Shown here: positions 1-62,586 of the stretch, in pieces | Layout: every line of letters begins with the position of its first letter | Numbering within the stretch: position 1 is the stretch's first letter | From: an uncultured virus (IMG/VR IMGVR_UViG_3300044295_000401) | Lineage: Duplodnaviria > Heunggongvirae > Uroviricota > Caudoviricetes | Virus record (IMG/VR): IMGVR_UViG_3300044295_000401 | Reading direction: 5' to 3' (one strand) | Length of the DNA stretch: 64,000 nt | Program-made: the position numbers and the translations under genes | Notes under the pieces: model-generated | The model's database searches: none | What the model was told of the DNA's origin: nothing | The model's input: only the letters and a program-made list of their open reading frames with translations

Positions 1-169
1 CGAAATAGAACTCTTCTTACACATCTCATAATGTGTAATAATCTTAGTTAGTAGAATTAGTACAGGATCATTAGTAAACTTACTCTTCATGTACTCTCCT
101 TATTAGAAATCAACGGCCCAAATCATACCGTGTATGAAATAGGCCGAGATTAAGATTGTTTGTATATAA

Positions 170-442
170 CTAGCTTACAATACGCTTACGTGCTTCTTCG
201 TAAAAGCTAACACCATATTCTTTAAGAAGCGATTTACCTAGTACTTTACCTTTGCTTACATTAGTACAAGGTTTACTTACTACAACAGTATCTCCAGTAT
301 CAGAAGAGGTTACAAGTGATACAGTAGGATTATCAGTAGTGACTTCTACCTTAAGTAGAGTACCATTATTACCAAGAAACGATTGAGTAGTGACGAACTT
401 ATTGTTAACCAGTTTATAACGTACACGAGTCATCTTATCCAT
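170..442 (-). CDS. hypothetical protein
   Basis: 90-aa ORF with AAAGGA SD upstream, co-directional with neighbours. Confidence 0.6.
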   Translation of the reverse strand: MDKMTRVRYKLVNNKFVTTQSFLGNNGTLLKVEVTTDNPTVSLVTSSDTGDTVVVSKPCTNVSKGKVLGKSLLKEYGVSFYEEARKRIVS

Positions 443-443
443 T

Positions 444-599
444 TTATTTTCCTTTGCTTATTACAGAACAAGTTATTAGAATAAAGAACAATACAAAAGG
501 ATTACATATTATACCAATAAAAAGATACATAAAAAGCTGTAATGTTTTATTTTGTAGAATAAGTAATCCAATAAACAAACTGATAATTAAAGTAAGGAT
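444..599 (-). CDS. small two-TM membrane protein, probable ATC start (not in ORF track)
   Basis: Open frame of 51 codons (ILTLIISLFIGLLILQ...LFFILITCSVISKGK*) filling the gap between two genes; AAGGGGG just upstream of ATC. Confidence 0.4.
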   Translation of the reverse strand: MLTLIISLFIGLLILQNKTLQLFMYLFIGIICNPFVLFFILITCSVISKGK

Positions 600-608
600 C
601 TAACCCCC

Positions 609-851
609 TTAAAACCATTTAGGTAAATGGTCTTCTTTTTGTTTTTGATTAATTAGTTCAAAATATTTAGAATTCCAACTATTATAATAACCATCATGTA
701 ATCTCTTTGTAGTGATTTTTCCTGTGCTATAAGAAAAATAAACATCAATTACCTGACATATATCGTTCTTAATGTATCCTCCTTCTGTATTATGTATATA
801 CTTTACTATGTCTCCAACTTTTAGTATGTTACCTTTTCTATCTTTAACCAA
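609..851 (-). CDS. small KOW/SH3-like protein with C-terminal HLPKWF tag
   Basis: LKVGDIVKY near the N-terminus; ends KEDHLPKWF*. Confidence 0.7.
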   Translation of the reverse strand: MVKDRKGNILKVGDIVKYIHNTEGGYIKNDICQVIDVYFSYSTGKITTKRLHDGYYNSWNSKYFELINQKQKEDHLPKWF

Positions 852-949
852 AGATATACCTTTCCTCTTTCAGAAGTGAAACTTATGACGCATACATGTG
901 ATGGTATCAATCAGCGCGTTTCACTCCTTAAGTTTATCATACTTTTTGT

Positions 950-1294
950 TCAAATGCAATAGTCACCATACATTTTCCAAGGAAGAGTTATCCAAAAGGT
1001 TTCTGTTTTAGTATAATAACCTCCTGCAAGTTGTACATACTTTATGTTGTTAGGTTTAAAATGAATTAAACCATATTGTTTCCAACGCATCTGTATATCA
1101 TATGAATATTCTAATTCACGGATAAGTTTAGGATTTACTTCATCACTTAAGATACCAACATAACCTTTTTTATCTTTCCAGGTATACTTATCACAGTTAA
1201 TTAAAATAACATCGTCGATGTTAGTAATCTTCTTTTTAGTTTTAAAGTTAATTACTGTGTAGTCTTTACCATTCCAATAAACAAAAGCTTTCAT
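950..1294 (-). CDS. hypothetical protein
   Basis: ORF whose ATG overlaps the upstream TGA (ATGA), suggesting translational coupling. Confidence 0.55.
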   Translation of the reverse strand: MKAFVYWNGKDYTVINFKTKKKITNIDDVILINCDKYTWKDKKGYVGILSDEVNPKLIRELEYSYDIQMRWKQYGLIHFKPNNIKYVQLAGGYYTKTETFWITLPWKMYGDYCI

Positions 1295-1545
1295 AGCCAT
1301 TCCGGTAAATGATCTTTTTTACGAGGTTCGAGAAACAAAAAACCTTCTTCAATATGAGTAATGATTTTACCTTTATGATGCCAAATATCATTACGACTTC
1401 TAAAAATATCTTGAAGACATTCAAGATCATAGGTTGGAAATGAACCATTTCCTTTTCTAACAACCTTAAACCTATGCTTTTCATTATACCAATTGTTATG
1501 CTTACACTTTTTATATCTTACAATATCACCCGGTTTAAACTTCAT
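1291..1545 (-). CDS. small KOW/SH3-like protein with C-terminal HLPEWL tag
   Basis: MKFKPGDIVRY start; ends RKKDHLPEWL*. Confidence 0.7.
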   Translation of the reverse strand: MKFKPGDIVRYKKCKHNNWYNEKHRFKVVRKGNGSFPTYDLECLQDIFRSRNDIWHHKGKIITHIEEGFLFLEPRKKDHLPEWL

Positions 1546-1547
1546 TA

Positions 1548-1838
1548 TTAACCTACACTTTCAACAGCTTTAATATCACTAAACATTATAGATGACACTT
1601 CTTCGATTTCTTTAAAGAGAGAAGGATTATAAGAAACGTTATCATAATTATAATCTTCTGCTGCAAGAAACTCAATAGAAAGATTTTGAGGTTCATCATT
1701 AATAATATCTGAACAACTAACATATGCATAGTGTTCTTTTTTATTTAATGCAATATACAAAAAACAATAATAACGTTTGGTTTCATTATCAATACCATAG
1801 TTATTAGTAGGTGCAACCGTTCCATTAAAGACATTCAT
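1548..1838 (-). CDS. hypothetical protein (likely start MNVFNGTV)
   Basis: The 3' part of track ORF 1548..1940; the upstream part overlaps ORF 1825..2088, and GGAG lies upstream of the internal ATG. Confidence 0.5.
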   Translation of the reverse strand: MNVFNGTVAPTNNYGIDNETKRYYCFLYIALNKKEHYAYVSCSDIINDEPQNLSIEFLAAEDYNYDNVSYNPSLFKEIEEVSSIMFSDIKAVESVG

Positions 1839-2088
1839 CTTCATCTCCTTCTTCATCCGTATGATAAAAGAAACCTTCAGCTTCATCGTAAATACTTCTA
1901 AGTTCTTCAGAATCTTTACCAAGAAGAATATCACCTTCATAAGTAGTCATAATACAACCATCAACGTCTTCAACTAAACCATTACGAAACATAGTAGTTT
2001 GCATATCTACTGAACAATGAGGCGAGAAATCAAAATTAGTTTCAATGTATTCAAGTTCTTTAACAATATCATCTTTAGAGTATCTCAT
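1825..2088 (-). CDS. acidic hypothetical protein
   Basis: 87-aa ORF with AAGGAG SD. Confidence 0.6.
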   Translation of the reverse strand: MRYSKDDIVKELEYIETNFDFSPHCSVDMQTTMFRNGLVEDVDGCIMTTYEGDILLGKDSEELRSIYDEAEGFFYHTDEEGDEDECL

Positions 2089-2181
2089 TATTAATCCACT
2101 CCTTTATTAAAAATATAAAATAACTAATAGCAATTAAACAAGCAATTGGAATTAAAACAATTCTAAGAATAACTTTCCATA

Positions 2182-2379
2182 TCATAGCCATTCCGGTAAA
2201 TGATCTTTTTTAATAACTATTTTACTTAGCTTACTTTCCATTGTCCACCATTCTTGTTCTGTACCCCAATCGGTATAAGGATTTAAACAACGAATCCAAT
2301 ATTTATAACCTTGAATTCTAGTGATAACCCGAATTTCGCCTTAATGAAGGACATGATCTCCTTTTTTAAACTTGCTCAT
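2182..2379 (-). pseudogene. HLPEWL-tag family gene with one in-frame TAA (2341-2343)
   Basis: Manual translation: MSKFKKGDHVLH*GEIRVITRIQGYKYWIRCLNPYTDWGTEQEWWTMESKLSKIVIKKDHLPEWL*; same N- and C-terminal motifs as its paralogues. Confidence 0.7.
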
Positions 2380-3133
2380 TGAACCATTCCTTTACCGCGT
2401 TTTTGTAAGATTGAAGCGTAGTTCCTTGTAGTCCGGGTGCAGTATTAACTTCTAATACTACAGGATTATTATCTTTATCAATAACAATATCTACCGCACC
2501 AAAGTCAAGACCCAAAGTTTGTACAGCATTAATAGCAGCGAGATTAAGATCTTCCGTAACCGTAATACCTTCTCGCACAAATACCCAACCTTGCTCATAA
2601 CTTCGGATATATTTATTATATACAGAACTCTCTTGATAACCTCTACGTCTACGTTTTTCAACTACATCTATTACAGTACCATTAAACACATGAACTCTAT
2701 ATTCTTTTTCTTTACGAATATATTTAACATACAAAGGAGCAGCAACCAAATCATCTACAGTCTTAGCAATAACAATACCTTTACCGCTATTAGAACGAAG
2801 TAGTTTACGACAAAGAACAATACGATTATTGTTAATCCATTCTTTAGCTTGCTCAATATCAGTAGTAAACTCAGGTATTTTAATTCCACCCTCTTTCATT
2901 TTAATAAAGGCTGTTAGTTTATTACTAGCAACCTTTACAGCGTCAGGTTTATTAAGAATAGTAACTCTATCCAAGCTAAACATAGGATTAGAGTTACCCC
3001 AATTGAGTACAATCTTTTTACGACCATAAACAGGAGTAGATTGTTTTTTCATTATAGCAATAGGCGACAATGAACGAACTAATTCTTTAGCAGAATTACT
3101 ATATGATTTATAAGGAAGTACTTTAAGTTTCAT
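2366..3133 (-). CDS. ATP-grasp (RimK/glutathione synthetase-like) ligase
   Basis: Motifs NWG, ASNK, SGKGI, EYRVHV, GLDFGAVD, VLEVNTAPG. Confidence 0.85.
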   Translation of the reverse strand: MKLKVLPYKSYSNSAKELVRSLSPIAIMKKQSTPVYGRKKIVLNWGNSNPMFSLDRVTILNKPDAVKVASNKLTAFIKMKEGGIKIPEFTTDIEQAKEWINNNRIVLCRKLLRSNSGKGIVIAKTVDDLVAAPLYVKYIRKEKEYRVHVFNGTVIDVVEKRRRRGYQESSVYNKYIRSYEQGWVFVREGITVTEDLNLAAINAVQTLGLDFGAVDIVIDKDNNPVVLEVNTAPGLQGTTLQSYKNAVKEWFNEQV

Positions 3134-3142
3134 AATAATCCT

Positions 3143-4396
3143 TTAGTGTTTGGTTCCAGTTTTCTTTACCCAAAGAGATCCATCTTCATCAAGAAACCAA
3201 TCATCCATTGCGGCTTCGTTTTCATTAAAAGGATCATTACTATTATTAGCAATGATCTCATTTACTTTATTGATCTCTTCAATTGCAACTTTGTTAATTT
3301 CAGCAACAGAAGGAAGAGATTCTTTATCAAGTTTAATTTGTTGACGCGCCCCTTCTAAAGTAAACCCTTTCTTCATCAAAGACTTTTCTTCTTCGGTTAC
3401 TTGTTGATGTTCTGCTTCTGATTTAAAGGGGAAAACATTATTACGTTTATATACTTCTTCTTCCCACTTCTTCATTTCATCTTGGTAAAGAGTATCACTA
3501 TGTCCTAAATAGCTACGTTTAGTATAGCTAGGAGGAGTATAAACATCGCGGTTGGTTGTGTCAGTGTACTTTACAGTAAGTATAGGTTTACCAGTAAAAG
3601 GATCAATACGAACTAATGTATCTTCATTAACAGACTCTGCTTTACTAATGATAGTCAGTCCAAGATAAGAACAAGCATTTTTAATATCATTAAGTTTAGT
3701 AGAAAATACAAGACAATCAAGCTCTTTGATATATGCCGCACTAAGCGAAGCTCTAGTACGAAATACATCGAGAATGCGTTTACCATTGTTATCTCTACTA
3801 AAGATACCGCAAGCAAAGTATCCTTTAAGATCATCAATTAGATTTTGAATATCAGAAGGAAGTTTCATTACCTCATGTTCAAGATATTTATTAAGGATAC
3901 GTTCACTATCACAAGTAGAACGAATCTGATCTTGTATAGTATGATTACGAATCACTCCATTATGAACAAGAGAAGTATCGGCAACCAAATCAATAAAAGG
4001 ATGAGTGTTTGCAAACTCTCGTCCACTAGTTGCCATTCGTGTATGAAGAGTAATAGCAGTAAAGGTATCAGTAAGAGTACCAAAGCTATTATACTTTTCA
4101 ATAGGTTCGACATTATTTTCATCTTCCAATTTAACAAAGTCTTTGTATGACTCCTTCACTTGTTTAGTTATATTAGTATCAATCTTCTTACCCTTAGTAT
4201 ATTGATTACGAGTAACAAATGCTTCATCATTATACCACCAACGTTCACCGAATAGATTACCTCGATGATCGAGAGCAGCATAACCTAGACCATCGCTATT
4301 ACCCTCACTCATAAGCTCAGCCATTTGATGAATAAACTTATTAGCAAGTTTAGCTTTATCTTTCTTAATACCTGACATGATAAGTAGTCTGCACAT
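3143..4396 (-). CDS. class II (Ntn) glutamine amidotransferase
   Basis: N-terminal MC nucleophile, DGLG, HTRMAT, NTHPF, HNGVI, CDSE motifs. Confidence 0.85.
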   Translation of the reverse strand: MCRLLIMSGIKKDKAKLANKFIHQMAELMSEGNSDGLGYAALDHRGNLFGERWWYNDEAFVTRNQYTKGKKIDTNITKQVKESYKDFVKLEDENNVEPIEKYNSFGTLTDTFTAITLHTRMATSGREFANTHPFIDLVADTSLVHNGVIRNHTIQDQIRSTCDSERILNKYLEHEVMKLPSDIQNLIDDLKGYFACGIFSRDNNGKRILDVFRTRASLSAAYIKELDCLVFSTKLNDIKNACSYLGLTIISKAESVNEDTLVRIDPFTGKPILTVKYTDTTNRDVYTPPSYTKRSYLGHSDTLYQDEMKKWEEEVYKRNNVFPFKSEAEHQQVTEEEKSLMKKGFTLEGARQQIKLDKESLPSVAEINKVAIEEINKVNEIIANNSNDPFNENEAAMDDWFLDEDGSLWVKKTGTKH

Positions 4397-4411
4397 ATAT
4401 AAACTCCTTAA

Positions 4412-5869
4412 TTAAGCCGCTTCTTCTACAGTGATATGTTTACCATTTTGATCTTTAAACTTAGTAATACGTTGCTTGATATACTCAAGCAATTCATTAT
4501 CCAAGCCATAGTATTGACAAAACGTTTCTGCTTTATGCGCTTCAGTATCTACTTTAACATTCATGTTAGCAATTGTAGTAAGAATCTTTACCCAATTACT
4601 AATCTTCTCAAAGTTAGTAGAACCACTGTGAATACGAATCTCAATAGTTTGATGTTTGTTTAATGCCAACAAGTTAATACCGTTGTATCTACTATTACTA
4701 GTACCACCATTCAACGCAGCCCAAGCAGTATCAAAGTCTTCCCATTCGACTTTCTTAGAATACACAGTATCTTTAATACCATTAGAATCAATACCATCAA
4801 GGCGACTGCGGGGGTTCATAGCGTACAAGATACGTTGTGCTTTAAACAAATTATGATACACAACACTACGATCACGATGCCGCATATCAAGATGAACATG
4901 CAAACCACAACGACCACCTACACGACTTGAACCATTCTTATTAATAGCTTTCAATGCACGTTGTAGTACAAGATGAATCATAGCTTCGGGTGCAATGATA
5001 GTAAGTTCATGAGCATATTCAAAGCCAGGTACTTTACGAATACTACCATCATCTACTAAGCAAACAAAGTCTTGGACATTCTCTGCTTGCAATTCTTTAG
5101 CAAGATCATACTTATCTAGCTTGCTAACAAATTCAATTTCAACACCTACATGTTTAGCATCAGTCAAAGGTACTTTACGTTCAAAGATTTTTCTAAGGTT
5201 CTTAGCTTGTTGAAGTTCCAAAAAGGTTCCTCCTTCCATATGAATGAAATGATTATCTGAAATTTCAGGGATATAATATTTATATTCAGTACCTCGTAAT
5301 ACATCTTTGTATATGGCATCTCTACCTTGACCGCCTTTACCACCACCAACATACACTTTATACTTAGGAGATACAGGTAAACCATCGACAGAAAAAGTAC
5401 GCTCTTGATATTGAATATCTTTTAGTTGTTTACGATGTTCTCTAAGTTCAGCAAGAGCTTCGTTTTGTTTTTCAACAACAAGATCTTTAATACCTTGTTG
5501 TTTATTACGATCGTATTCAAGTTCAACATCTACTTGATATGATTTAACTCCATTGTATTTAGTAAGGCCGGAACTATCATCAATGAATTGGTTAAACAAC
5601 TTCCATTCACGATCCGCAGTAATGTGAATTACCTTTTTGTTTTTGCTGATAGCAAGTTGAACATTCAATTTTTTACGTGCATTACGCAAACACTGTTGTA
5701 GTTTTTGTGCAGCAACAAGTAGATCAGTATCTTCTGTTTCAGAATCTTCTTGAATTTTAAGAAGATCGCCACAGCCTTTAATTTTATTAATAGTCAATAG
5801 CTTTTGGTTAATTTTATTTTGATTAAAGTTATAATTGGTAACAGTTTTAACTTTGTACTTCAACGTCAT
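4412..5869 (-). CDS. putative amidoligase (COOH-NH2 ligase family)
   Basis: GVEIEF, DGSI, CGLHVH, RYNGIN, TIEIRIH motifs. Confidence 0.8.
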   Translation of the reverse strand: MTLKYKVKTVTNYNFNQNKINQKLLTINKIKGCGDLLKIQEDSETEDTDLLVAAQKLQQCLRNARKKLNVQLAISKNKKVIHITADREWKLFNQFIDDSSGLTKYNGVKSYQVDVELEYDRNKQQGIKDLVVEKQNEALAELREHRKQLKDIQYQERTFSVDGLPVSPKYKVYVGGGKGGQGRDAIYKDVLRGTEYKYYIPEISDNHFIHMEGGTFLELQQAKNLRKIFERKVPLTDAKHVGVEIEFVSKLDKYDLAKELQAENVQDFVCLVDDGSIRKVPGFEYAHELTIIAPEAMIHLVLQRALKAINKNGSSRVGGRCGLHVHLDMRHRDRSVVYHNLFKAQRILYAMNPRSRLDGIDSNGIKDTVYSKKVEWEDFDTAWAALNGGTSNSRYNGINLLALNKHQTIEIRIHSGSTNFEKISNWVKILTTIANMNVKVDTEAHKAETFCQYYGLDNELLEYIKQRITKFKDQNGKHITVEEAA

Positions 5870-6057
5870 ACGTTATTCTCCTTTGCAAAAACAGTTTCAA
5901 CTTTCTTATTGTAAGAATCAATAGCCACTTGTTCTTTAACAAATAAAAGATTATTGAATTCAATATCTTTGTTGTCTTCTATCTTAAACATATTAGCTTT
6001 CTTTAATAGTTTAATTATACGTCCTTTATGTTCAATAGATAATATAATTTTGTACAT
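5866..6057 (-). CDS. hypothetical protein
   Basis: ATG overlapping the upstream TAA (TAATG); stop overlaps the amidoligase start. Confidence 0.5.
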   Translation of the reverse strand: MYKIILSIEHKGRIIKLLKKANMFKIEDNKDIEFNNLLFVKEQVAIDSYNKKVETVFAKENNV

Positions 6058-6320
6058 TACAACCACTCCGGCAAATGACTTTTTTCATTAAGATCATTCA
6101 ATACAATAAAACCATCAGAGTTTGCTAATCGGTATGAAGTATAAGATTTATGCCCAACAGGAAATCCGAGTTCTTTGTTATTATTTATTAAAACTTCATC
6201 TTCAAATCCTGCTATAGCATATGTTGCAATATTAATTTTAGTTACTTTACAAACCATATCTTTAAAACAACCTGACTTATATTTAATAATCATTCCCGGT
6301 TTTAAATCTTCTGCTCTCAT
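6057..6320 (-). CDS. small KOW/SH3-like protein with C-terminal HLPEWL tag
   Basis: LKPGMIIKY near the N-terminus; ends EKSHLPEWL*. Confidence 0.7.
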   Translation of the reverse strand: MRAEDLKPGMIIKYKSGCFKDMVCKVTKINIATYAIAGFEDEVLINNNKELGFPVGHKSYTSYRLANSDGFIVLNDLNEKSHLPEWL

Positions 6321-6323
6321 TTG

Positions 6324-6581
6324 TTATACCTCAAACTCAGTATCCCAATATGATACAGTAAACAACCCTCTTACACCAAACTCACAAGCATTATGATTAG
6401 CTTTGTTCATAAAGTGTACAGCTTCATAGATTTCATTATTAACAATTGCATCATTAAGAAATTTAGAATTATATGCAATGATTTCATCAACAGTATTGAA
6501 TACACCTAGAAGTTTATTATTTCCAGGGGTAAAACTAGATTGATACAGCTTATATTTGTTAGATACTACTAGCTTATACAT
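6324..6581 (-). CDS. hypothetical protein
   Basis: 85-aa ORF with AAGGAG SD. Confidence 0.6.
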   Translation of the reverse strand: MYKLVVSNKYKLYQSSFTPGNNKLLGVFNTVDEIIAYNSKFLNDAIVNNEIYEAVHFMNKANHNACEFGVRGLFTVSYWDTEFEV

Positions 6582-6590
6582 ATATACTCC

Positions 6591-6791
6591 TTAAAACCAT
6601 TCAGGTAAATGTTCTTTATTATCAGATTTATATTTTTTTATTGTTTCAAATGTCCAATAACCATTATGATGCGTACCAGTATCTATATGTTCAACACGAG
6701 TTACATATTTTATAGTCATTGATACAATTTTATACAAACAATTAGGATTGTTGTAAAAATAAACAACATCTCCCGCTTTAAAAGGTATCAT
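6591..6791 (-). CDS. small KOW/SH3-like protein with C-terminal HLPEWF tag
   Basis: MIPFKAGDVVYF start (ATGA overlap with upstream stop); ends NKEHLPEWF*. Confidence 0.7.
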   Translation of the reverse strand: MIPFKAGDVVYFYNNPNCLYKIVSMTIKYVTRVEHIDTGTHHNGYWTFETIKKYKSDNKEHLPEWF

Positions 6792-7093
6792 AGCCACTCC
6801 GGTAAATGCGATTGTTTTTTACATTCATCGTTTCCTTCGTCTTCTATTTCTTCATCAATAGAACTATCGCAATACTCGGTATTATAACTTTCACATTCTC
6901 TTGCTTCAATTAATTCTACGTCAGGGAATTTATCTTTAAAGCGGCTTGCTCTAATATATCCTCCCTCTTGTTGAAAATAGTCTTTCATTTCGTCTAATGT
7001 TACTTGTGATATATCATTAGGAACTCTTACTTCTAATCGTCCACAACGATAATCATAATATGTTTCATTAAACGTCCATTTATATACTTTCAT
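6788..7093 (-). CDS. acidic protein with C-terminal HLPEWL tag
   Basis: Body unrelated to the KxGD paralogues but ends KKQSHLPEWL*. Confidence 0.65.
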   Translation of the reverse strand: MKVYKWTFNETYYDYRCGRLEVRVPNDISQVTLDEMKDYFQQEGGYIRASRFKDKFPDVELIEARECESYNTEYCDSSIDEEIEDEGNDECKKQSHLPEWL

Positions 7094-7097
7094 ATTA

Positions 7098-7217
7098 TTA
7101 TTCTACCCACCAATAAGGTTTATCACGTTTAGTCCATTTAGCAAAATCTTTTTTAGCTCCCATATAATAATTGCGATACGATTGAACTACATCATCTACT
7201 TTTACTGCATTTGACAT
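7098..7217 (-). pseudogene. C-terminal fragment of a pyrimidine-dimer glycosylase (endonuclease V-like) family protein
   Basis: MSNAVKVDDVVQSYRNYYMGAKKDFAKWTKRDKPYWWVE* resembles the family's C-terminal YRxYY..K..FAKW..R..P.W segment; N-terminal domain absent. Confidence 0.5.
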
Positions 7218-7226
7218 AATATTAAA

Positions 7227-7302
7227 TGGTCGGGCAAACGGGAATTGCACCCGCGACCCCCCGCTTATAAGACGGATGCTCTAACTGCTGAGCTATTGCC
7301 CG
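7227..7302 (-). tRNA. tRNA-Ile (anticodon UAU), CCA encoded
   Basis: Reverse complement CGGGCAA TAGCTCAGCAGTTAGAGC A TCCGT CTTATAA GCGGG GGTC GCGGG TGCAATT CCCGT TTGCCCG A CCA folds as a 76-nt cloverleaf. Confidence 0.9.
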
Positions 7303-7333
7303 AAATTTATTATTTAATCCTTTCTTTTTAAAA

Positions 7334-7396
7334 AATTGAACCCACCTTTACAACGCTTATAAGACGCCGCCAAACTACCGGCCTGCCACCGAGGGA
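7334..7396 (-). pseudogene. truncated tRNA-like element with UAU anticodon
   Basis: TCCCTCGGTGGCAGGCCGGTAGTTTGGC GGCGT CTTATAA GCGTT GTAAAG GTGGG TTCAATT followed by an A/T tract; 3' strands of the T stem and acceptor stem are missing. Confidence 0.55.
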
Positions 7397-7444
7397 ATTG
7401 AAAACAAAAATTTATTTAATACGTGTAACCGACCGAGATTAAGT

Positions 7445-7789
7445 TTATTTCCACGTTTGTTTATAAGGCACAACAGCGCCGCATTTACAACCAACATTAA
7501 ACAAAGTTTTGCTATCACAAGTACAAGATTTTTCAATAATATCTTTTACATTTTCAAATCTTTTAATAACATTTAAACTGCTATTATTATCTAATACAAA
7601 ATCATTATCAATTGCTGCTGGATAAGTAAAGATATTTATATATCCAAGCAACCATTCTTTTCCTTTAGGTGTAGTTATATATGAAATAGTATACATAGGA
7701 GTATACAAAGTATTAACAATATCATCAATTCTTATTTTAAGATCAGGTTCTGCAATGCTTTTAATTATATCCCCTTTTTTAAATTTCAT
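7445..7789 (-). CDS. KxGD (KOW/SH3-like) protein with C-terminal CxC...CxC motif
   Basis: MKFKKGDIIKS start; CTCDSKTLFNVGCKCG near the C-terminus; no HLPEW tag. Confidence 0.6.
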   Translation of the reverse strand: MKFKKGDIIKSIAEPDLKIRIDDIVNTLYTPMYTISYITTPKGKEWLLGYINIFTYPAAIDNDFVLDNNSSLNVIKRFENVKDIIEKSCTCDSKTLFNVGCKCGAVVPYKQTWK

Positions 7790-8694
7790 TACTCCTCCAA
7801 CAATCCTAATTCTCTAGCTTGTTTTTTTGTAATAGTCTTTTTCTTATTATTAATAATAACTTCAACCATTTCTTCTTCAAGAAGACTAATACCAGTAATT
7901 TGTTTGAATACTTCATCATTATAATTAGGAAGCGATAGAATAAACTTTTTATTAGCATCAGTAAGTTTAGTCCAGTCGCGACGATTAGTTTTTCTAAGAA
8001 ACCCACCAGTTATTTTACTAGAAGGATTATCTTTCTTTTCTTGTTCAGTCATTTCATTTATACAAACCCATTGAAGAATAGGTTTAACGTTTAATGAACG
8101 AATTTGATTTTCAAATTCTTTTGTATATACAAGATTAGAGGGTTTGTTAAATAAGTAAATTGGAACTTTAGTACAGAAATAGCCGCTATTCCCGTCGCCG
8201 CTATTCCAGTCGCCGCTATTCCTGTTGCCGCTATTCCCGTAGCCGCTATTCCTGTTGCCGCTATTCCCGTCGCCGCTATTCCAGTCGCCGCTATTCCAGT
8301 CGCCGCTATTCCTGTTGCCGCTATTCCTGTTGCCGCTATTCCCGTAGCCGCTATTCCTGTTGCCGCTATTCCCGTAGCCGCTATTCCCGTAGCCGCTATT
8401 CCCGTAGCCGCTATTATTATCTAATTCATCTTTAAAAATTTCTCTTATAATAGTAATCTTATTAGTTACAGCTTTATCTCCTTCAATTATAATATCTTCT
8501 GCAAGAATTTCACATACTCTTGTTTCATCATTACGAGAATAATAATTAAATACATCAGATAATTTTTTACAAAAATGAAAACCGTTTTTACAAATAGTTA
8601 AAGTTCCATTAATTTCATATGTTTTTCCAATCTCAAATTGAAATCCACGACATTTAAGATCTTTATCAAATGCTTTATAACCAATATGTTTCAT
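7789..8694 (-). CDS. phage protein with YKAFD...GFHFC N-terminal domain and NSGxx pentapeptide repeats
   Basis: Likely start MKHIGYKAFDKDLKCRGFQFEIG with GGAG SD; 16 NSGxx units; typical LPNY..EVFKQITGI C-terminal segment. Confidence 0.75.
   Translation of the reverse strand: MKHIGYKAFDKDLKCRGFQFEIGKTYEINGTLTICKNGFHFCKKLSDVFNYYSRNDETRVCEILAEDIIIEGDKAVTNKITIIREIFKDELDNNSGYGNSGYGNSGYGNSGNRNSGYGNSGNRNSGNRNSGDWNSGDWNSGDGNSGNRNSGYGNSGNRNSGDWNSGDGNSGYFCTKVPIYLFNKPSNLVYTKEFENQIRSLNVKPILQWVCINEMTEQEKKDNPSSKITGGFLRKTNRRDWTKLTDANKKFILSLPNYNDEVFKQITGISLLEEEMVEVIINNKKKTITKKQARELGLLEE
8182..8415 (-). repeat. 15-bp coding tandem repeat, 16 units: AATAGCGGC plus a variable hexamer
   Basis: Invariant AATAGCGGC followed by TACGGG, AACAGG, GACTGG or GACGGG. 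Confidence 0.95.
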
Positions 8695-8860
8695 TACACT
8701 CTCCAAATAATGAGCCATCCCTCCTGCTATAAGCCGGGTGACTCGAATTGTTTTAAACCCATCATCAGACAAGGTAATACCTTGTGACCCGAATTCCGTT
8801 GTTAGTAATAATAAATACTTATAATAGACGGCGCTTCGGGTTTCGGGTTGTTATGTCCCT

Positions 8861-9043
8861 TTACGCATTGCCCTCCGGTTTATAATAATTAAACATTTTT
8901 CGCACAACTTCTTGACGTTTAGGCGTAATAATATAATCTTTTTCCATTTCTTTTTGGAGATGATCTTTAAACATTTCGCGTTCTACATCTCTTGCAAAAC
9001 ACGCACCTACAAACAAAACACAAGCCATTCCAAACATTACCAT
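8861..9043 (-). CDS. small protein with N-terminal hydrophobic segment
   Basis: GGAGTAGTGT-ATG leader, also found before the starts at 9480 and (as GGGGTAGTGT) 9632. Confidence 0.55.
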   Translation of the reverse strand: MVMFGMACVLFVGACFARDVEREMFKDHLQKEMEKDYIITPKRQEVVRKMFNYYKPEGNA

Positions 9044-29817: not shown

Positions 29818-32800
29818 ATGGCCGCTAATAATACATATGCTGGTTCTTTAAATGCGATGTTTAAATAAGTCTTGAACATCTGAGGTAAAGCCCTCCCTCT
29901 ACGCATAGAGAGGAAAAGAACGTGAATTGCTGGAAGCCCTTATAGGGTAATCAGCAGCCAAGCTAGATAAAATGATTATCTAGAAGGTTCAGAGACTAGA
30001 TTATACTTAGATTATCCTTATCGCTTAGCGAGTTGGAGATAAAAAAAATGATAAACAAGGACAAACGTAGCCTTATTTTATCTATGATTTTAGGTGATGG
30101 TTGCCTTCATTATGTTAAACGTAATGATAAATTATATGGTGCTATTACATTAGATCATGGAAATGAACAATCTGATTATATTGCATGGAAATGTAATATA
30201 GTTAAAAAGATTTTTGATAAAGAAATAAAATTACGTCCAGGTCATAATGGTAAATCAATACAATTTTCTGTTTGCTCTAAAAAATTAAGAGCTTGGAGAA
30301 AGTTTTGTTACCCAAATAACAAAAAATCAATTAAAAAGATTTTACCTTTTATACAACACCCCGAATTTGCATTAGCAGTTTGGTTAATGGACGATGGTTA
30401 TGTTCAGTCTAGTTTTAATAAATTAGCTTCTGGTGAAAAGAAAAATTATGGAGCTAGGTTTAGAATATATAGCTGTGATCAATCTTTAGATGATCACGAG
30501 TATATTAAAACTTGGTTTAAAAGTAATTTTAATTTAAAAGACGGAATAAAAATAAGCAAATTTTTTGATAAAAAACAACAAAAACACTACCCATTTATTA
30601 AGTTCACTCAAACTGATTCTTTAATAATATGGGAAAAAATTAGAGAAGTTGTTTTAAGTTTAAAAAGTATGCAACATAAATTCCGTTACATCGAAGAAAT
30701 TTATCAATCTAAGAAATCACAGCGCGTTCCTGAATAAATAATTCAGATGATATAGTCCGATACCCGGAGTAATCTGGGAAAACACTATGAAAGAAAACTA
30801 TGCCGACAAAATTGAGGATCTAATTCCAGATGGAGTGAAGCTTCTTAATCTTGTTAAGTTTATGCCAAAGGATAAACAACCTGGTAATCTTTACCATTAA
30901 TGTTGGTGGTAAGTAGGTAAAATCCTACTAATTGATAAAAAAAAATCAATTATAAATCAACTCTAATTGACTTGAACCTCCGAAAATCCCGGACAACAAG
31001 GCGGAAGCGAAAGCACCGTGAGAGACTAAACGAGTTGACAATAAGTTAAACTTATTGATGCGATAGTCCGAACTACTGAAATAGGAAAAGGTAAAACAGT
31101 AGAGCTAAACAGAAATGATTTAGCCAGAATAAAAATTCTGTAACAATTGCAACCTGTTATCCTTGGTTTAGAACATGGAGTTACCTTCGCCTCATCAGAC
31201 GAAGATGCGTTGACTTATAAGTTAAGCGCCTAATTGTAGGAATATAATTAGCAAATCGAGGAAAAAACCTGGAAAGCTAATTGAAAGTATGTTATAATAG
31301 AAGTTATGAAAAAGTACGGTACAATCTATATAATAAAAAATAAATTAAATGGTAAAGTCTATATTGGACAAACCACTCAATCTGTTTTTGTTAGATGGAA
31401 TGCCCATAAACGTTTAAATAACACTATTATTTCAAAAGCCTTAAAAAATAATATTAATAATTTTGAGTTTATTGAGTTTTTAACTTGCTTTTCTAAAGAA
31501 GAACTTAATTTTTGGGAAAAAGAATTTATTAAACAGTTTAATTCTATTGCTCCATTTGGTTATAATCAAACTACTGGTGGTAATGAATTTTCATTTAATA
31601 ACGAAATTAAAACAAAAATGAGTTTAATTAAAAAAGGTAAAGAAAGTAAAAATCATATTGTCGGTGTTATAGCTAAAAACATTGAAACTAACAATATTGA
31701 ATATTTTGATTCATTAAAATCCGCAACTAAAAAGTTAAATATTTCAAGAAGTAGTATTTTAAAAAGTTGTAAATATAATATTATTAGAAAAGGTTACTTA
31801 TTTTCATATGCCAATCAGAGCGGAAGTGATAAAAATAAAAGCTTGTCACACGCGCAGAGACTAGAGAGTGAACCTGTTAATACAGAATATAATCTCTCCA
31901 CGAGTCCTCGGTTCCCTAAAAAATATATGGATAACAAAGATTTAATACTTAATTTAAGTAGATCTTTAACACCATATAGTATATCTAAAAAATTAAATTT
32001 AGATAAATCTATGGTATGTTATTTTATCCATTGTTTTGGGAAGTAAGATAGTCCGATCCATTAGAAATAATGGGTTTACAGGATAAAGAGCCTGTAACAG
32101 CCTAATGCTGAAATTGTTAACTTAAACGCTCCAGTAGCTGGTGTAATCAAAGATGCTCAAGTAAAAGGTTATCCCCTTGTACTTCGTTCTGTCCTTGGTT
32201 ATACTGCTGCTAGCCGCGCTGCACAGGGCGGAAAGCAAGCTTTCATGGATGCTACCAAGTATCTAGTAAGCAACATGCTTCGTTCTGTAACCAAGAAGCT
32301 CGAAATCGAGATGTTCTATGGTCAAATGGGTTATGGTGCCGTAGCTTCTAACTCAAGCACTGTGGTAACCATTCAGACTGCTGAATGGGCTCCCGGTATT
32401 TGGGCTGGTGCCGAAGGCATGCCTGTTGAAATTCGTGATAGTTCAGGTGCTGTGTCTAAAGGTGAGTACAAAATTACCGCCGTTAACATGGACAGCCGTA
32501 CTATTACCCTAGACGCCGATCCAGGCACACTCTCCTCTGGCGATGTGATCTGGCACAAAGGCGCTTATGGTAACGAATTCCCTGGCGTTCACAAGATCCT
32601 TACCAACTCTTCAACCCTATTCAACATTAACGCTGCTCAGTTTAACCTCTTCAAGGGTAACCAATATCCTGCCGGTTCTGCTGCGCTAAGCTTCAACAAG
32701 CTAAACCTTGCTGCTGCTCGTGGTGTTGAAAAAGGTCAAGATGGTAAGCTCATCGCCTTTGTTAACCCCCGTGCATGGTCAAACATGATGAACGATCAAG

Positions 32801-57656: not shown

Positions 57657-57882
57657 TCATTTCCTTTTTAATATCTGCTCTTTTAGCTTCTTCAGCTTCA
57701 ATTTGACCAGAATTAGAAGAAATCTGTTTGTTCATTTCGTTGATTTTATCTAAGTCTTCTTTATTATCAGCTATAGCATCTGTTGTTTTACGCCTGGAGC
57801 GCTCATAAATAAACGCTCCAGACATAATAAATAGAAGTATTGCTAATAGTGCTTGGAAATTATTTTTTAGTTTTTCCAGCAT
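57601..57882 (-). CDS. N-terminal TM plus coiled-coil protein (i-spanin-like?)
   Basis: Likely start MLEKLK; TM helix then coiled coil. Confidence 0.45.
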   Translation of the reverse strand: MLEKLKNNFQALLAILLFIMSGAFIYERSRRKTTDAIADNKEDLDKINEMNKQISSNSGQIEAEEAKRADIKKEMNDAKSDDNSDATDFLKRR

Positions 57883-58711
57883 TGTGTTCCCATAGATATA
57901 CATTAGGGGAAATCATCTGTACATCAAAAGTCTTGCGGTTACGATTACCACGATCTTCATTTGGTTGTGGAAGAGCAGGGCTTAGCTTAAGAGCGGGTTC
58001 AGGATAGTTTGCCACATTAAGGTTAACAATACCGTCTACTAGACCTTTAGCGCTAGCATCTTCAGCATCAATCCAGAGTTCATAAGCTACAAGTTTATTG
58101 TATTCGTCAAGTGTTACTTTAGAGCGCTTTACCACGTTAGCTACAATTTTATCAACGTAACGGGTAATAGTAGTTAGCTGACTAAGCATATTAGGAACTT
58201 GACCTTGAGCACCAGCTGACGCTGGGTGGTACATTAGAATAGCACGGTCAGTGGCATAACGCTTAACACCATAAGAATGGATCATTGCTGCCATAGAGGC
58301 GCATAGGCGAGTACATACGGTATATACAGGAGCTTTAGATGCTTCCATCTCTGAAATAAGAGTAGCGCCATCAAGAATAGAACCACCAGGACTATCAATT
58401 AAAAGCCAAATAGGTTCTGATGAATTAGCTTGAAGCTTTTTAATTTGATCGGTTAGTTCTTGAGCAGAATCATAATCTACTACACGATTAAGATAAAGTA
58501 CGCGATTTTTATTAACAGCGGTTTTAAGTACATTTTTAGCGGCTACAACAAGTTCGCCATCTGCACTTAGACGTTTATCTGTAATATTGCCCGAAACGGT
58601 TGCTGATTGAACTGTGATGTTTTCGGGGGTTGATGATTGGTTAAATGATGCATTGGTGTAAGCTAATAGACCTACAGCAACAAGCAAACTACCTGCTACA
58701 TAATATTTCAT
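57860..58711 (-). CDS. ClpP-like (S14) serine protease with N-terminal signal peptide
   Basis: IDSPGGS, CASMAAMI (catalytic Ser), LMYHP (His), GLVDGI; MKYYVAGSLLVAVGLLAY leader. Confidence 0.8.
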   Translation of the reverse strand: MKYYVAGSLLVAVGLLAYTNASFNQSSTPENITVQSATVSGNITDKRLSADGELVVAAKNVLKTAVNKNRVLYLNRVVDYDSAQELTDQIKKLQANSSEPIWLLIDSPGGSILDGATLISEMEASKAPVYTVCTRLCASMAAMIHSYGVKRYATDRAILMYHPASAGAQGQVPNMLSQLTTITRYVDKIVANVVKRSKVTLDEYNKLVAYELWIDAEDASAKGLVDGIVNLNVANYPEPALKLSPALPQPNEDRGNRNRKTFDVQMISPNVYLWEHNAGKTKK

Positions 58712-58777: not shown

Positions 58778-59272
58778 TTATTTGTCAACTAATTTCTTTT
58801 TGGCTTCTCTACGAATTTTTCTGAGTTGTACTTCTGTGTCTGTTTTTACTGTGTGACATGGATCACATAGAATTTGAAACCCCTCGGTATTACAGAACAT
58901 TCGGGTAATATACATAGACCAGTCTTTACCATCCCATCCATCAAGAGGAACTACAGGATCTTTATGGTCTACAAAGTATTCACCGTTTTTAAATAAGCCG
59001 TGACACATAGCACATTTATATAAACCGCGTTCAACACGAGCTGCTTTAATAGCTTCGCTGCGGTAATGCCATCTGTAACTAGCTGTTCTTAATTTAGGAA
59101 TTAGAAAACGTCGAAGTTCTTTTTGAAGCTCATCATCCAATACGCTTTGATCTGTAATCGCAGATGCTGCATTTTTGGAATCTTCTGCCTGCAATAATAA
59201 TTTCTGTGAGTCCTTTTCGTCCGCATTCGGGACACTCTGCTCGTCGATCTTCTGCTTCTTTTTTCGGCCCAT
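58778..59272 (-). CDS. HNH endonuclease-like protein
   Basis: CAMC, VDHKDPV, LCDPCH..KT. Confidence 0.75.
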   Translation of the reverse strand: MGRKKKQKIDEQSVPNADEKDSQKLLLQAEDSKNAASAITDQSVLDDELQKELRRFLIPKLRTASYRWHYRSEAIKAARVERGLYKCAMCHGLFKNGEYFVDHKDPVVPLDGWDGKDWSMYITRMFCNTEGFQILCDPCHTVKTDTEVQLRKIRREAKKKLVDK

Positions 59273-61361: not shown

Positions 61362-61621
61362 TATTCTTCGCCATCTAGCATTTCAAAAACTTCTTCAATG
61401 ATATTATCTGCTGTAGGTGAGATATCCATATGTTCTAAAAACATCCTAGCTTGCTTACGGTGTTTTCTTGGTGAAATTTTTGATGTTCTTTTGTTTAATT
61501 TAACCGCATTTTGCATTAAAGCTAATTCAAACCAATCTGTATTATCACTCCAATGAATATGGTATTCGTTTTGAAAAAGTCGATTATGGTGTTTATTTTG
61601 TTTATTTAACCAATTAATCAT
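61361..61621 (-). CDS. hypothetical protein
   Basis: 86-aa ORF with ATGA overlap. Confidence 0.5.
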   Translation of the reverse strand: MINWLNKQNKHHNRLFQNEYHIHWSDNTDWFELALMQNAVKLNKRTSKISPRKHRKQARMFLEHMDISPTADNIIEEVFEMLDGEE

Positions 61622-62586
61622 GCAAACCCGAGAGATTTACCTTGTTCTTTAAAAGCTTTGTTGTATTCTTCTACTTCTTTAAGAACTTCTTTAAGACTAG
61701 CTTCTAATGACTTTTCATGAATAACAGAGCGGATAATTGCTTCTTTAATGTGTGCAGGTGAAAGATGGTCTGCTGGGCGTCCTTCTAAGACTTTCTTTTC
61801 TGATTCATCTAATTCCCTTTTAAGGAAGAATTGAGCTAGTTTAACACGTGCATCTGCTTTAGGATATCCGGCCTTAATCTTGTCATCAAAACGTCCTGGA
61901 CGGTTGGTAAGGCTTCCCATAAGCACTTCTGGAAAGTTTGTGGTGGCAATAATTAATGTTGGGATCTTAAGAGTTTTTTCGTTGTTATCTAACAAAGAGA
62001 GTAGACCAGAATCAGCTCCGCGTCTAACTTCTTCCATTTCAATTCCGCCAACGTCTTCCATAATAAGAATTAACTGTTCTACATTATCATAAGAAAACGT
62101 TTTAATAAAGTCTTTAACTTGATATGCTTCAAACTTTTCTGTTTGAAATACCACTACAGCAGTTTTACCTAATTCTACGTATTTGTTACAAATTTTAGCA
62201 ATAGAAGTTGACTTGCCAGTACCAGGAGGACCAAAGAGAAGAATGTTGCGTTTAGCAATTTCAAATCCTAGCTCTTTGTATTTATGAATATTACGAAAAA
62301 AACAATCAGCTTTATCTTCAATTTCTTTAGTGTTTACAAAGTCTTCTAGAATGTTGTCTTTAATAAAACTTGTTCGTTCTAGGTAAAACCCAGAAAGATT
62401 TTGCATGATTGTGTAAATACCAGGTTCTACTTTATATGGTTCAGGATTCTTTTCGACTTCAATATATTTTAATTGAACAAACTTACCTTCTGGGGTAAGG
62501 GTAGAATAATCGCTTTCTGGGATAAAATCTCCAACAGCGGCTTTATTAAGATCTGTAACTTTTTCTACTCGGAAATGACCTGCCAT
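61618..62586 (-). CDS. classical-clade AAA+ ATPase
   Basis: GPPGTGKS, ILIMED, IATTN, RPGRFD. Confidence 0.9.
   Translation of the reverse strand: MAGHFRVEKVTDLNKAAVGDFIPESDYSTLTPEGKFVQLKYIEVEKNPEPYKVEPGIYTIMQNLSGFYLERTSFIKDNILEDFVNTKEIEDKADCFFRNIHKYKELGFEIAKRNILLFGPPGTGKSTSIAKICNKYVELGKTAVVVFQTEKFEAYQVKDFIKTFSYDNVEQLILIMEDVGGIEMEEVRRGADSGLLSLLDNNEKTLKIPTLIIATTNFPEVLMGSLTNRPGRFDDKIKAGYPKADARVKLAQFFLKRELDESEKKVLEGRPADHLSPAHIKEAIIRSVIHEKSLEASLKEVLKEVEEYNKAFKEQGKSLGFA

Follow-up and report, generated by a model that had tools for sequence, protein, structure and literature searches.

What is the role of a short C-terminal peptide that is shared by several small and otherwise divergent phage proteins? 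This question is raised by a 64,000-nucleotide stretch of DNA from an uncultured virus (IMG/VR record IMGVR_UViG_3300044295_000401, Caudoviricetes), referred to here as the window, in which six minus-strand open reading frames (ORFs) terminate with HLP[E/K]W[L/F] followed directly by the stop codon (the coordinates of these and neighbouring genes are collected in Table 1). On balance we think that the six genes represent an undescribed multigene family of small (about 66–108 amino acid) non-structural proteins, and that the tail is a docking or recognition handle which they have in common.

The six ORFs had been noticed in a preliminary description made from the sequence alone, and the coordinates and stops given there were correct. 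A six-frame search of the whole 64 kb found no HLP.W beyond the six tails, and the back-translated tail pattern (CAYYTNCCNRARTGGYTNTRR) had six matches in the window and none in each of 100 dinucleotide-preserving shuffles. Each copy has at least one Lys two to four residues ahead of the tail His. As had also been described, five of the six genes start with [F/L]KxG[D/M], which is absent from 6788–7093, and the ORF at 7445–7789 has a start of the FKxGD type and no tail. The gene at 2182–2379 is indeed interrupted (an internal ATG would still yield a 19-amino acid peptide bearing the tail), and its counterpart in another locus, L287, shows no interruption before the contig ends. No Pfam family was found for the window tail proteins at E 0.01, and PHROG gave weak matches for one protein only.

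The tail is also found in proteins from elsewhere. A profile of the window copies recovered three foreign proteins with the same tail (P0006, P0007 and P0008), four ORFs ending in [K/R][K/R]NLP[D/N/A]WF are present in two further loci (L288 and L319), and a profile including the NLPxWF proteins recovered ten more (P0012 and P0014–P0022), giving 17 foreign tail proteins from about 13 metagenomic contigs which end in [K/Y][K/Q]-x-[H/N]-L-P-x-W-[F/L]. Residues were counted over 22 proteins (the six window copies plus 16 foreign proteins; the second L319 protein, which has no identifier, is outside this set). The tail Leu, Pro and Trp are invariant in all 22, position −8 is Lys in 16 and Gln in four, position −6 is His in 13 and Asn in nine, position −3 is Glu in ten, Asp in seven, Lys in three, and Asn and Ser in one each, and the last residue is Phe in 15, Leu in six and Trp in one. 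The FKxGD start is found in 19 of the 22. When the last nine residues were removed and ten members compared, the sole significant match between bodies was that of P0007 with the 6788–7093 protein (E 2e-31), of which P0007 is the orthologue (53% identical overall with the last seven residues identical), and a third type of body, lacking the N-terminal hairpin, is seen in a 70-amino acid tail protein of L288. Judged from these sequences, the family is one of constant ends and a fast-diverging middle, together with at least two unrelated bodies carrying the same tail.

This changes the picture given in the preliminary description in two respects. It had seen no evident similarity between the middles of the six proteins, and yet these are not six unrelated bodies, as one SH3/KOW-like family accounts for five of them, in the form of divergent paralogues, and the sixth has a different body. 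The modularity it proposed for the tail is borne out by at least three body types, but to speak of diverse effectors was an overstatement as 19 of the 22 proteins fall in one family with a constant N-terminal hairpin, and tail and body have therefore mostly been inherited together. That the motif was not recognised from described systems agrees with our own searches: no Pfam or PHROG family and no searchable paper describes the family or the tail, and in these sources both are undescribed.

Larger searches returned no further relatives. From 1.84 billion representatives, a profile search gained just P0006, P0008 and P0009, and nothing newly related (P0009, of 297 amino acids, has four internal QNH[LF]PEWL copies in which the hexapeptide is not terminal, and was judged to be an unrelated repeat protein). 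A scan of IMG/VR for the tail DNA gave seven loci with one match each, none of which was accepted as a relative: three matches are in frames of 19 codons or fewer, two run into TGG instead of a stop, and two identical matches end a 130-codon frame unlike the family. The equivalent scan for K-K-N-L-P-x-W-F-stop gave one locus in which the match is not an ORF end. A scan of genomes (one per species) for K-x-H-L-P-E-W-[LF]-stop gave 54 single matches, 44 with a true stop and none multi-copy; only four of these lie in open frames of at least 50 codons, and with about 35 expected by chance (our own estimate) the matches provide no prophage or host lead. A single-protein search with 6057–6320 found only itself, and a tblastn search of phages with the 1291–1545 protein found only two records at E 0.4.

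Purifying selection acts on the tail at the level of the peptide. When the six window copies were compared over their last five codons, the proportions of synonymous and non-synonymous differences (pS and pN) were 0.76 and 0.07, a ratio of 0.09, and in the six codons upstream of the tail pN/pS was about 1.9. For ten DNA copies (those of the window, L288 and L319), tail pN/pS was 0.18 compared with 1.07 upstream. Synonymous sites are near saturation: the variants listed in the preliminary description (TTA/TTG, CCT/CCG, GAA/GAG and CTA/TTG) are all present, and over the ten copies the tail Leu is encoded by TTA, TTG, CTT and CTC and the tail Pro by CCT, CCG and CCA.

The assignment of the five paralogues to an SH3/KOW-like barrel is only moderately supported by structure predictions. 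The ESM Atlas model of the 84-amino acid 1291–1545 protein (predicted TM-score 0.62) has viral hypothetical proteins, DUF4926 and KOW proteins as neighbours (TM-scores 0.57–0.65), and the profile of an analogous family from Zobellviridae-type phages, described below, matches the MIB1 SH3-like repeat (E 5.6e-4). AlphaFold2 places four strands, where such a barrel would have five, at residues 11–14, 23–30, 33–38 and 71–74 of the 6057–6320 protein with low confidence (mean predicted local distance difference test, pLDDT, of 59). The body of 6788–7093 is predicted, also with low confidence (mean pLDDT 66), to be strand-strand-helix-helix-strand-strand, followed by an acidic linker and tail (residues 87–101) with values below 50. 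A Foldseek search of PDB with this last model had no matches at E 0.001, and a PDB profile search with the window family had nothing below E 0.76. A ubiquitin-like beta-grasp fold was considered for 6788–7093 and P0007 and rejected, as the Pfam ubiquitin match of P0007 is sub-threshold (E 0.0027, 17.9 bits against a cut-off of 25.4) and there was no ubiquitin among the top Foldseek rows.

If the tail is a handle, the genes around it may indicate what reads it. Unmentioned in the preliminary description, three peptide-ligase genes (2366–5869) are flanked by the tail genes; they encode a RimK-like ATP-grasp ligase, a glutamine amidotransferase-domain protein and an amidoligase, and one tail gene overlaps the ATP-grasp stop. 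Homologues of this ATP-grasp, all less than 60% identical, are found in 314 phage records, including those of Zobellviridae and many Pseudomonas, Escherichia and Vibrio phages. In L287, where the ATP-grasp is 65% identical to that of the window, an SH3-like ORF overlaps the ATP-grasp stop at the position of the broken window copy; in L319 (42% identical) the ATP-grasp is followed by two tandem NLPxWF genes; and in L288 (44% identical) the ATP-grasp is flanked by two NLPxWF genes. A comparison of the 13-kb L288 locus with the window found the ATP-grasp to be the sole common ORF at E 1e-3, and no amidoligase or amidotransferase was found in those 13 kb. We also note that the L288 ATP-grasp (2517–3323, plus strand) has a strongly basic C-terminal extension of about 20 residues which is absent from the window enzyme. 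Because tail genes adjoin the ATP-grasp in three divergent lineages, and because this is the only gene common to the window and L288, we tentatively take the RimK-like ligase as the most likely reader or pathway of the tail; it is our best lead, though possible rather than probable.

Surveys of other loci point in the same direction. Ends of the LP.W[FLIMVY] type were found in four of 4855 ORFs in metagenomic ATP-grasp loci, compared with none of 10530 in T7-like loci and one of 8029 in random loci. A small ORF starts at the ATP-grasp stop in 99 of 131 distinct ATP-grasp loci, and ten of these ORFs (one of them spurious) carry the hairpin motif, against a baseline, which includes non-coding frames, of 63/3243 for all small plus-strand ORFs of the same loci (Fisher p 1e-4 on nine). 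We further note that in another lineage (L296, L024, L030, L072 and L079) a single SH3-like gene of the form MF[NK][IV]GD...F[KQ]F[QK]GV starts at the ATP-grasp stop, an indication that the arrays have expanded from a simpler state with one copy of a partner gene. Small-gene families with other tails also occur in ATP-grasp loci, ending RKAQEK or RKASEK in L016, L018, L023, L038, L294, L300 and L312, and FKGNK in L045 and L046; if back-translated, these tails would contain a ribosome-binding site.

The closest parallels are found in cultured phages of the Zobellviridae type. Citrobacter phage CVT22 (L011) has 19 small genes sharing the tail LENE, Klebsiella phage Asterion (L010) has 14 sharing LENK, and Salinivibrio phage CW02 (L012) has ten sharing LEENV, and in each the tail genes are interleaved with ATP-grasp, amidoligase and amidotransferase genes. 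These arrays of 10–19 small genes resemble that of the window in their enzyme genes, in the [FIV]KxGD start of many members, in having a second type of body (with a PxWATH start) bearing the same tail, and in the synonymous variation of the tail codons. They differ in that the tail sequence is unrelated, being acidic or polar, and in that nearly all tails contain GGAG for the next gene. In a profile comparison with the window family only 15 N-terminal columns align (probability 70%, E 4e-5), and on this sequence comparison common descent is likely but not established. The CVT22 genome announcement makes no mention of the tail genes. As the same arrangement is present in cultured Citrobacter, Klebsiella and Salinivibrio phages, it is accessible to bench work, and lineage-specific C-terminal tails on many small phage proteins look like a recurring, undescribed way of organising non-structural proteins; such tails are short enough for domain databases to miss.

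A number of results weigh against a reading in which the handle is linked to these enzymes. The last residue of the tail is Phe or Leu and an acidic residue at −3 is not fixed, whereas known RimK and LysX substrates end in Glu, and the AlphaFold2 models are of low confidence. Ends of the LP.W[FLIMVY] type were not found among the 9418 ORFs of 80 IMG/VR ATP-grasp loci, and a shared-tail family (scored by our own criterion of three or more members) was present in only 9/80 of these loci and 2/36 metagenome loci of at least 7 kb. PA11 and an Alcaligenes phage have the enzymes and no tail family. Most ATP-grasp loci are therefore without a tail family, and the enzymes do not need these proteins. 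In the controls, tail families were found in 0/77 T7-like loci and in 4/69 random loci from three contigs, one with a chance match, one with a repeat picked up by our own pattern and one with a true paralogue family ending HFGVE, and the excess of 9/78 ATP-grasp over 3/68 random contigs is weak (p 0.10, about three lineages). Three or more hairpin-motif ORFs are found in 5/78 ATP-grasp loci and in 0/144 controls (p 0.005), again from about three lineages. The HFGVE family (MNERI.ELA...HFGVE, at 6398–7934 on the minus strand of L248) is a shared tail in a phage locus without the three enzymes, and constant-end small-gene families thus also occur elsewhere. The ATP-grasps of the three LPxW lineages have one unusual residue column in common, which 29% of random triplets also reach, and in a quick ATP-grasp tree the LPxW rows do not form one clade but need two changes, a result also compatible with one origin, so that the tree is uninformative. 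Finally, LPxW tails with DNA context were sought only in loci selected for ATP-grasp and in two control sets, and the 13 database proteins came without context, so that the adjacency may be overestimated. A search for related loci with the window ATP-grasp alone found nothing.

With these reservations, the handle might work as follows. The basic linker, L-P-x-W-[F/L] and the free carboxylate would together form a short linear docking or recognition motif which brings all family members within reach of a single reader, and the variable barrels would supply different specificities. Were the reader or pathway that of the RimK-like ATP-grasp ligase, found here with the amidoligase and the glutamine amidotransferase, the tail proteins could serve as substrates, to be extended or modified at the C-terminal carboxylate, or as adaptors which carry bound targets to the ligase. 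In a more specific and unlikely version, the tail would be the handle of a phage protein-tagging system in which the ATP-grasp, amidoligase and amidotransferase activate or extend the C-terminal carboxylate of the barrels, perhaps ligating the barrels or the targets they hold to other proteins. If this is true, the expanded and fast-evolving barrel family would be a repertoire of modifiers or substrate adaptors, loosely like Pup/PafA or F-box adaptors.

The main rival to a ligase as reader is a protease, which we regard as unlikely. The tail would then be a degron or adaptor tether for an AAA+ protease, either a phage ClpP-family protease with an AAA ATPase or host ClpXP/ClpAP, and would allow the timed removal of early proteins or the delivery by the barrels of bound host targets for degradation, a use that we hold equally unlikely. 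Basic residues followed by a hydrophobic free C-terminus are reminiscent of ClpX C-terminal signals, the SspB tether and the HbYX tails of proteasome activators with their penultimate aromatic residue. The window encodes a Clp homologue and an AAA ATPase, which share the strand of the tail genes and lie among the replication genes, clear of the structural block and its head genes; these two may be a phage-encoded AAA+ protease pair. Asterion-type LENK phages, moreover, encode an HslV-like peptidase (a tblastn search with it found five loci including its own genome). Against this, HslV and ClpP were without a match at E 1e-4 in CVT22 and CW02, which have large tail families, there is likewise none within the 13 kb of L288, and the Clp homologue could be a prohead protease (PHROG names are mostly 'head maturation protease').

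Slightly less likely is a host partner. In that case the tail would recruit these proteins to some conserved hub of the host (the sliding clamp, SSB partners, RNA polymerase or the ribosome, for instance), in the manner of the SSB tip or phage clamp-binding tails. A free hydrophobic or aromatic C-terminal motif on many small non-structural proteins would suit such a role, and the L-x-x-W-[F/L] spacing after basic residues may resemble that of C-terminal clamp-binding tails of the PIP-like type. The near-identical LENE, LENK and LEENV tails of related cultured phages of enterobacteria and Salinivibrio could also be understood in this way. Nothing in the locus indicates a host hub, however, and the window replication genes, which are of the T7-like split PolA type (phrog_403), give no sign of clamp use.

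It is improbable that the tail has no external reader at all and is conserved for structure, with the N-terminal hairpin and the C-terminus packing together in the barrel or mediating self-assembly. The co-occurrence of the two motifs in 19/22 proteins is consistent with this, as are those ESM Atlas alignments which span residues 1–84 of the 84-amino acid 1291–1545 protein and the existence of conserved-end paralogue families in other phages such as L248. The tail is nevertheless found on two bodies without the hairpin (6788–7093 with P0007, and the 70-amino acid L288 protein), 7445–7789 has the hairpin without the tail, other Atlas alignments end at residues 75–78, and the tail and linker are predicted to be disordered on the alpha/beta body.

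The remaining explanations place the conserved element in the nucleic acid or in the ribosome, and both are very improbable. Were the tail a coupling element, comprising a ribosome-binding site and the next start, or a recombination or gene-conversion tract, with the peptide as a by-product, this would fit an arrangement which the preliminary description did not mention, in that the next gene has its ribosome-binding site or start codon within four of the six window tails: the stops of these tails overlap or abut the next start (CTATGA in three and TAATG in one), and exactly these four spell Pro-Glu as CCGGA[A/G], a ribosome-binding site. Copies 1291 and 2182 also have 30 identical bases in common, and most tails in CVT22, Asterion and CW02 hold GGAG before the next start. 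However, the two uncoupled window copies use CCT in place of CCG, and so have lost GGA[G/A] and retained the peptide (uncoupled copies in Asterion and CW02 likewise keep the peptide without GGAG), the four L288 and L319 tails contain no ribosome-binding site, this coming after the stop instead, and it is the distance from peptide to stop that is fixed while that from GGAG to ATG varies. Given these tails and a pN/pS of 0.09–0.18 with near-saturated synonymous sites and four Leu and three Pro codons in use, we reject a purely nucleic-acid explanation, including that of a translational-coupling element only; it is largely refuted, and the use of the Pro-Glu codons as a ribosome-binding site in four window copies is secondary. 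Nor is it at all probable that the tail works while still nascent, by delaying termination at its stop codon inside the ribosome and so adjusting re-initiation at the gene that follows: C-terminal peptides containing Trp and Pro can stall termination, and selection on the peptide, the invariant distance to the stop and the overlap of several stops with the next start would all fit, but no gene follows copy 609 for about 160 nucleotides, and the genes after the L288 and L319 tails are each served by a ribosome-binding site of their own.

The window itself is part of a tailed-phage genome, with terminase, portal, major head protein, tail protein and endolysin genes on the plus strand, the minus strand holding the replication genes and the small non-structural ones. 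Contigs on which the window proteins are recorded reach 85,910 bp in length, and a near-DNA search of 50,697 phage records with positions 1–9000 found no match. A DUF7666 repeat protein is encoded directly upstream of the tail genes, and a homing-endonuclease-like gene lies within the structural block immediately ahead of the major head protein gene.

Table 1. Tail genes, neighbouring enzyme genes and other features of the window (SH3/KOW-like assignments are putative).
Feature	Position	Strand	Tail codons and stop	Remarks
SH3/KOW-like small gene, 80 aa, ends KEDHLPKWF	609..851	−	609–629	N-terminal ILKVGDIV hairpin motif; no coupled downstream gene
SH3/KOW-like small gene, 84 aa, ends KKDHLPEWL	1291..1545	−	1291–1311	Stop overlaps next start (CTATGA)
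SH3/KOW-like gene, tail KKDHLPEWL, broken	2182..2379	−	2182–2202	In-frame TAA at codon 13; start overlaps end of ATP-grasp gene
RimK-like ATP-grasp ligase, 255 aa	2366..3133	−		RimK PF08443, E 9.7e-10; phrog_2599, E 4.2e-81
Class-II (Ntn) glutamine amidotransferase-domain protein, 417 aa	3143..4396	−		GATase_6, E 1e-7
Amidoligase_2 (glutamine-synthetase-like carboxylate-amine ligase), 485 aa	4412..5869	−		PF12224, E 5.7e-11; phrog_2443, E 2.3e-16
SH3/KOW-like small gene, 87 aa, ends EKSHLPEWL	6057..6320	−	6057–6077	Tail CCGGAG is the ribosome-binding site 8 nt before next ATG (TAATG)
SH3/KOW-like small gene, 66 aa from ATG at 6791, ends NKEHLPEWF (P0004)	6591..6797	−	6591–6611	Separate GGAG after stop
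Acidic 101-aa protein, different alpha/beta body (predicted), tail KKQSHLPEWL	6788..7093	−	6788–6808	Stop overlaps start of next tail gene
114-aa protein, FKKGD start, Cys-rich end, no tail	7445..7789	−
327-aa protein	7789–8772	−		DUF7666 domain, E 2.5e-28, then long G-N-S-G-[YND] pentapeptide-type repeats
Homing-endonuclease-like gene	31306–32046	+		phrog_314, E 6.4e-23
Clp protease homologue	57860–58711	−		PF00574, E 2.3e-28
Second HNH endonuclease	58778–59272
AAA ATPase	61618–62586	−		PF00004, E 6.8e-12

Several known systems offer points of comparison with the window family. Graspetide precursors, from the ribosomally synthesised and post-translationally modified peptides, are short, with a leader and a core rich in Thr/Ser and Asp/Glu which is cross-linked by a microviridin-type ATP-grasp; the tail proteins were rejected as members of this class as they are of 66–108 amino acids with predicted folded bodies and no core repeat, and the best Pfam match of the ATP-grasp is RimK. 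Tails that dock onto a hub include the SSB tip (D-D-D-I-P-F), the clamp-binding tails of T4 gp43, gp33 and gp55, the SspB tether to ClpX and the HbYX tails of proteasome activators. Like the window tail, each is a short motif at a free C-terminus, hydrophobic or aromatic at its end and common to otherwise different proteins; these known tails gather their proteins on a single partner, and none has the sequence of the window tail. A tail of the SSB-tip type in particular was rejected, as the linker is basic (Lys at −8 in 16/22) and the end is L-P-x-W-[F/L] with no acidic run and I-P-F (a probable SSB of the Alcaligenes phage has a true DDIPF end).

In LysW/LysX and S6/RimK, the free C-terminal tail of a small protein is read and extended by a RimK-family ATP-grasp ligase; S6 ends ...EE and LysW ends ...EDWGE, and it is the Glu carboxylate which is ligated. 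The likeness here is of a small protein having a conserved free tail with Trp near the end, predicted in the window to be on a flexible linker, and an adjacent RimK-like ATP-grasp gene (in the window, L287, L288 and L319). Unlike both systems, the window family ends in Phe or Leu after a basic linker and not in Glu, and when compared with LysW it has a predicted SH3-like body instead of a zinc ribbon and many divergent copies instead of one carrier, with ligation only a candidate activity suggested by analogy.

The phage ATP-grasp, amidoligase and glutamine amidotransferase module, of which the original analysis is said to be that of Iyer, Abhiman, Burroughs and Aravind in 2009, resembles the window locus in combining these three enzyme families within a non-structural part of the phage genome. 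In the accessible portions of the papers concerned its roles are only proposed, as cell-wall modification and superinfection exclusion or as host-protein modification (PMC10580990, PMC4431377), or the enzymes are merely listed (PMC6209634, PMC3890496), and, unlike the situation in the window, those portions of the first two mention no associated small-protein family or shared tail. For a module whose role has, as far as these portions go, only been proposed, though its ATP-grasp gene alone has homologues in 314 phage records, the tail family at the end of the ATP-grasp gene would provide the first concrete candidates for substrates or adaptors.

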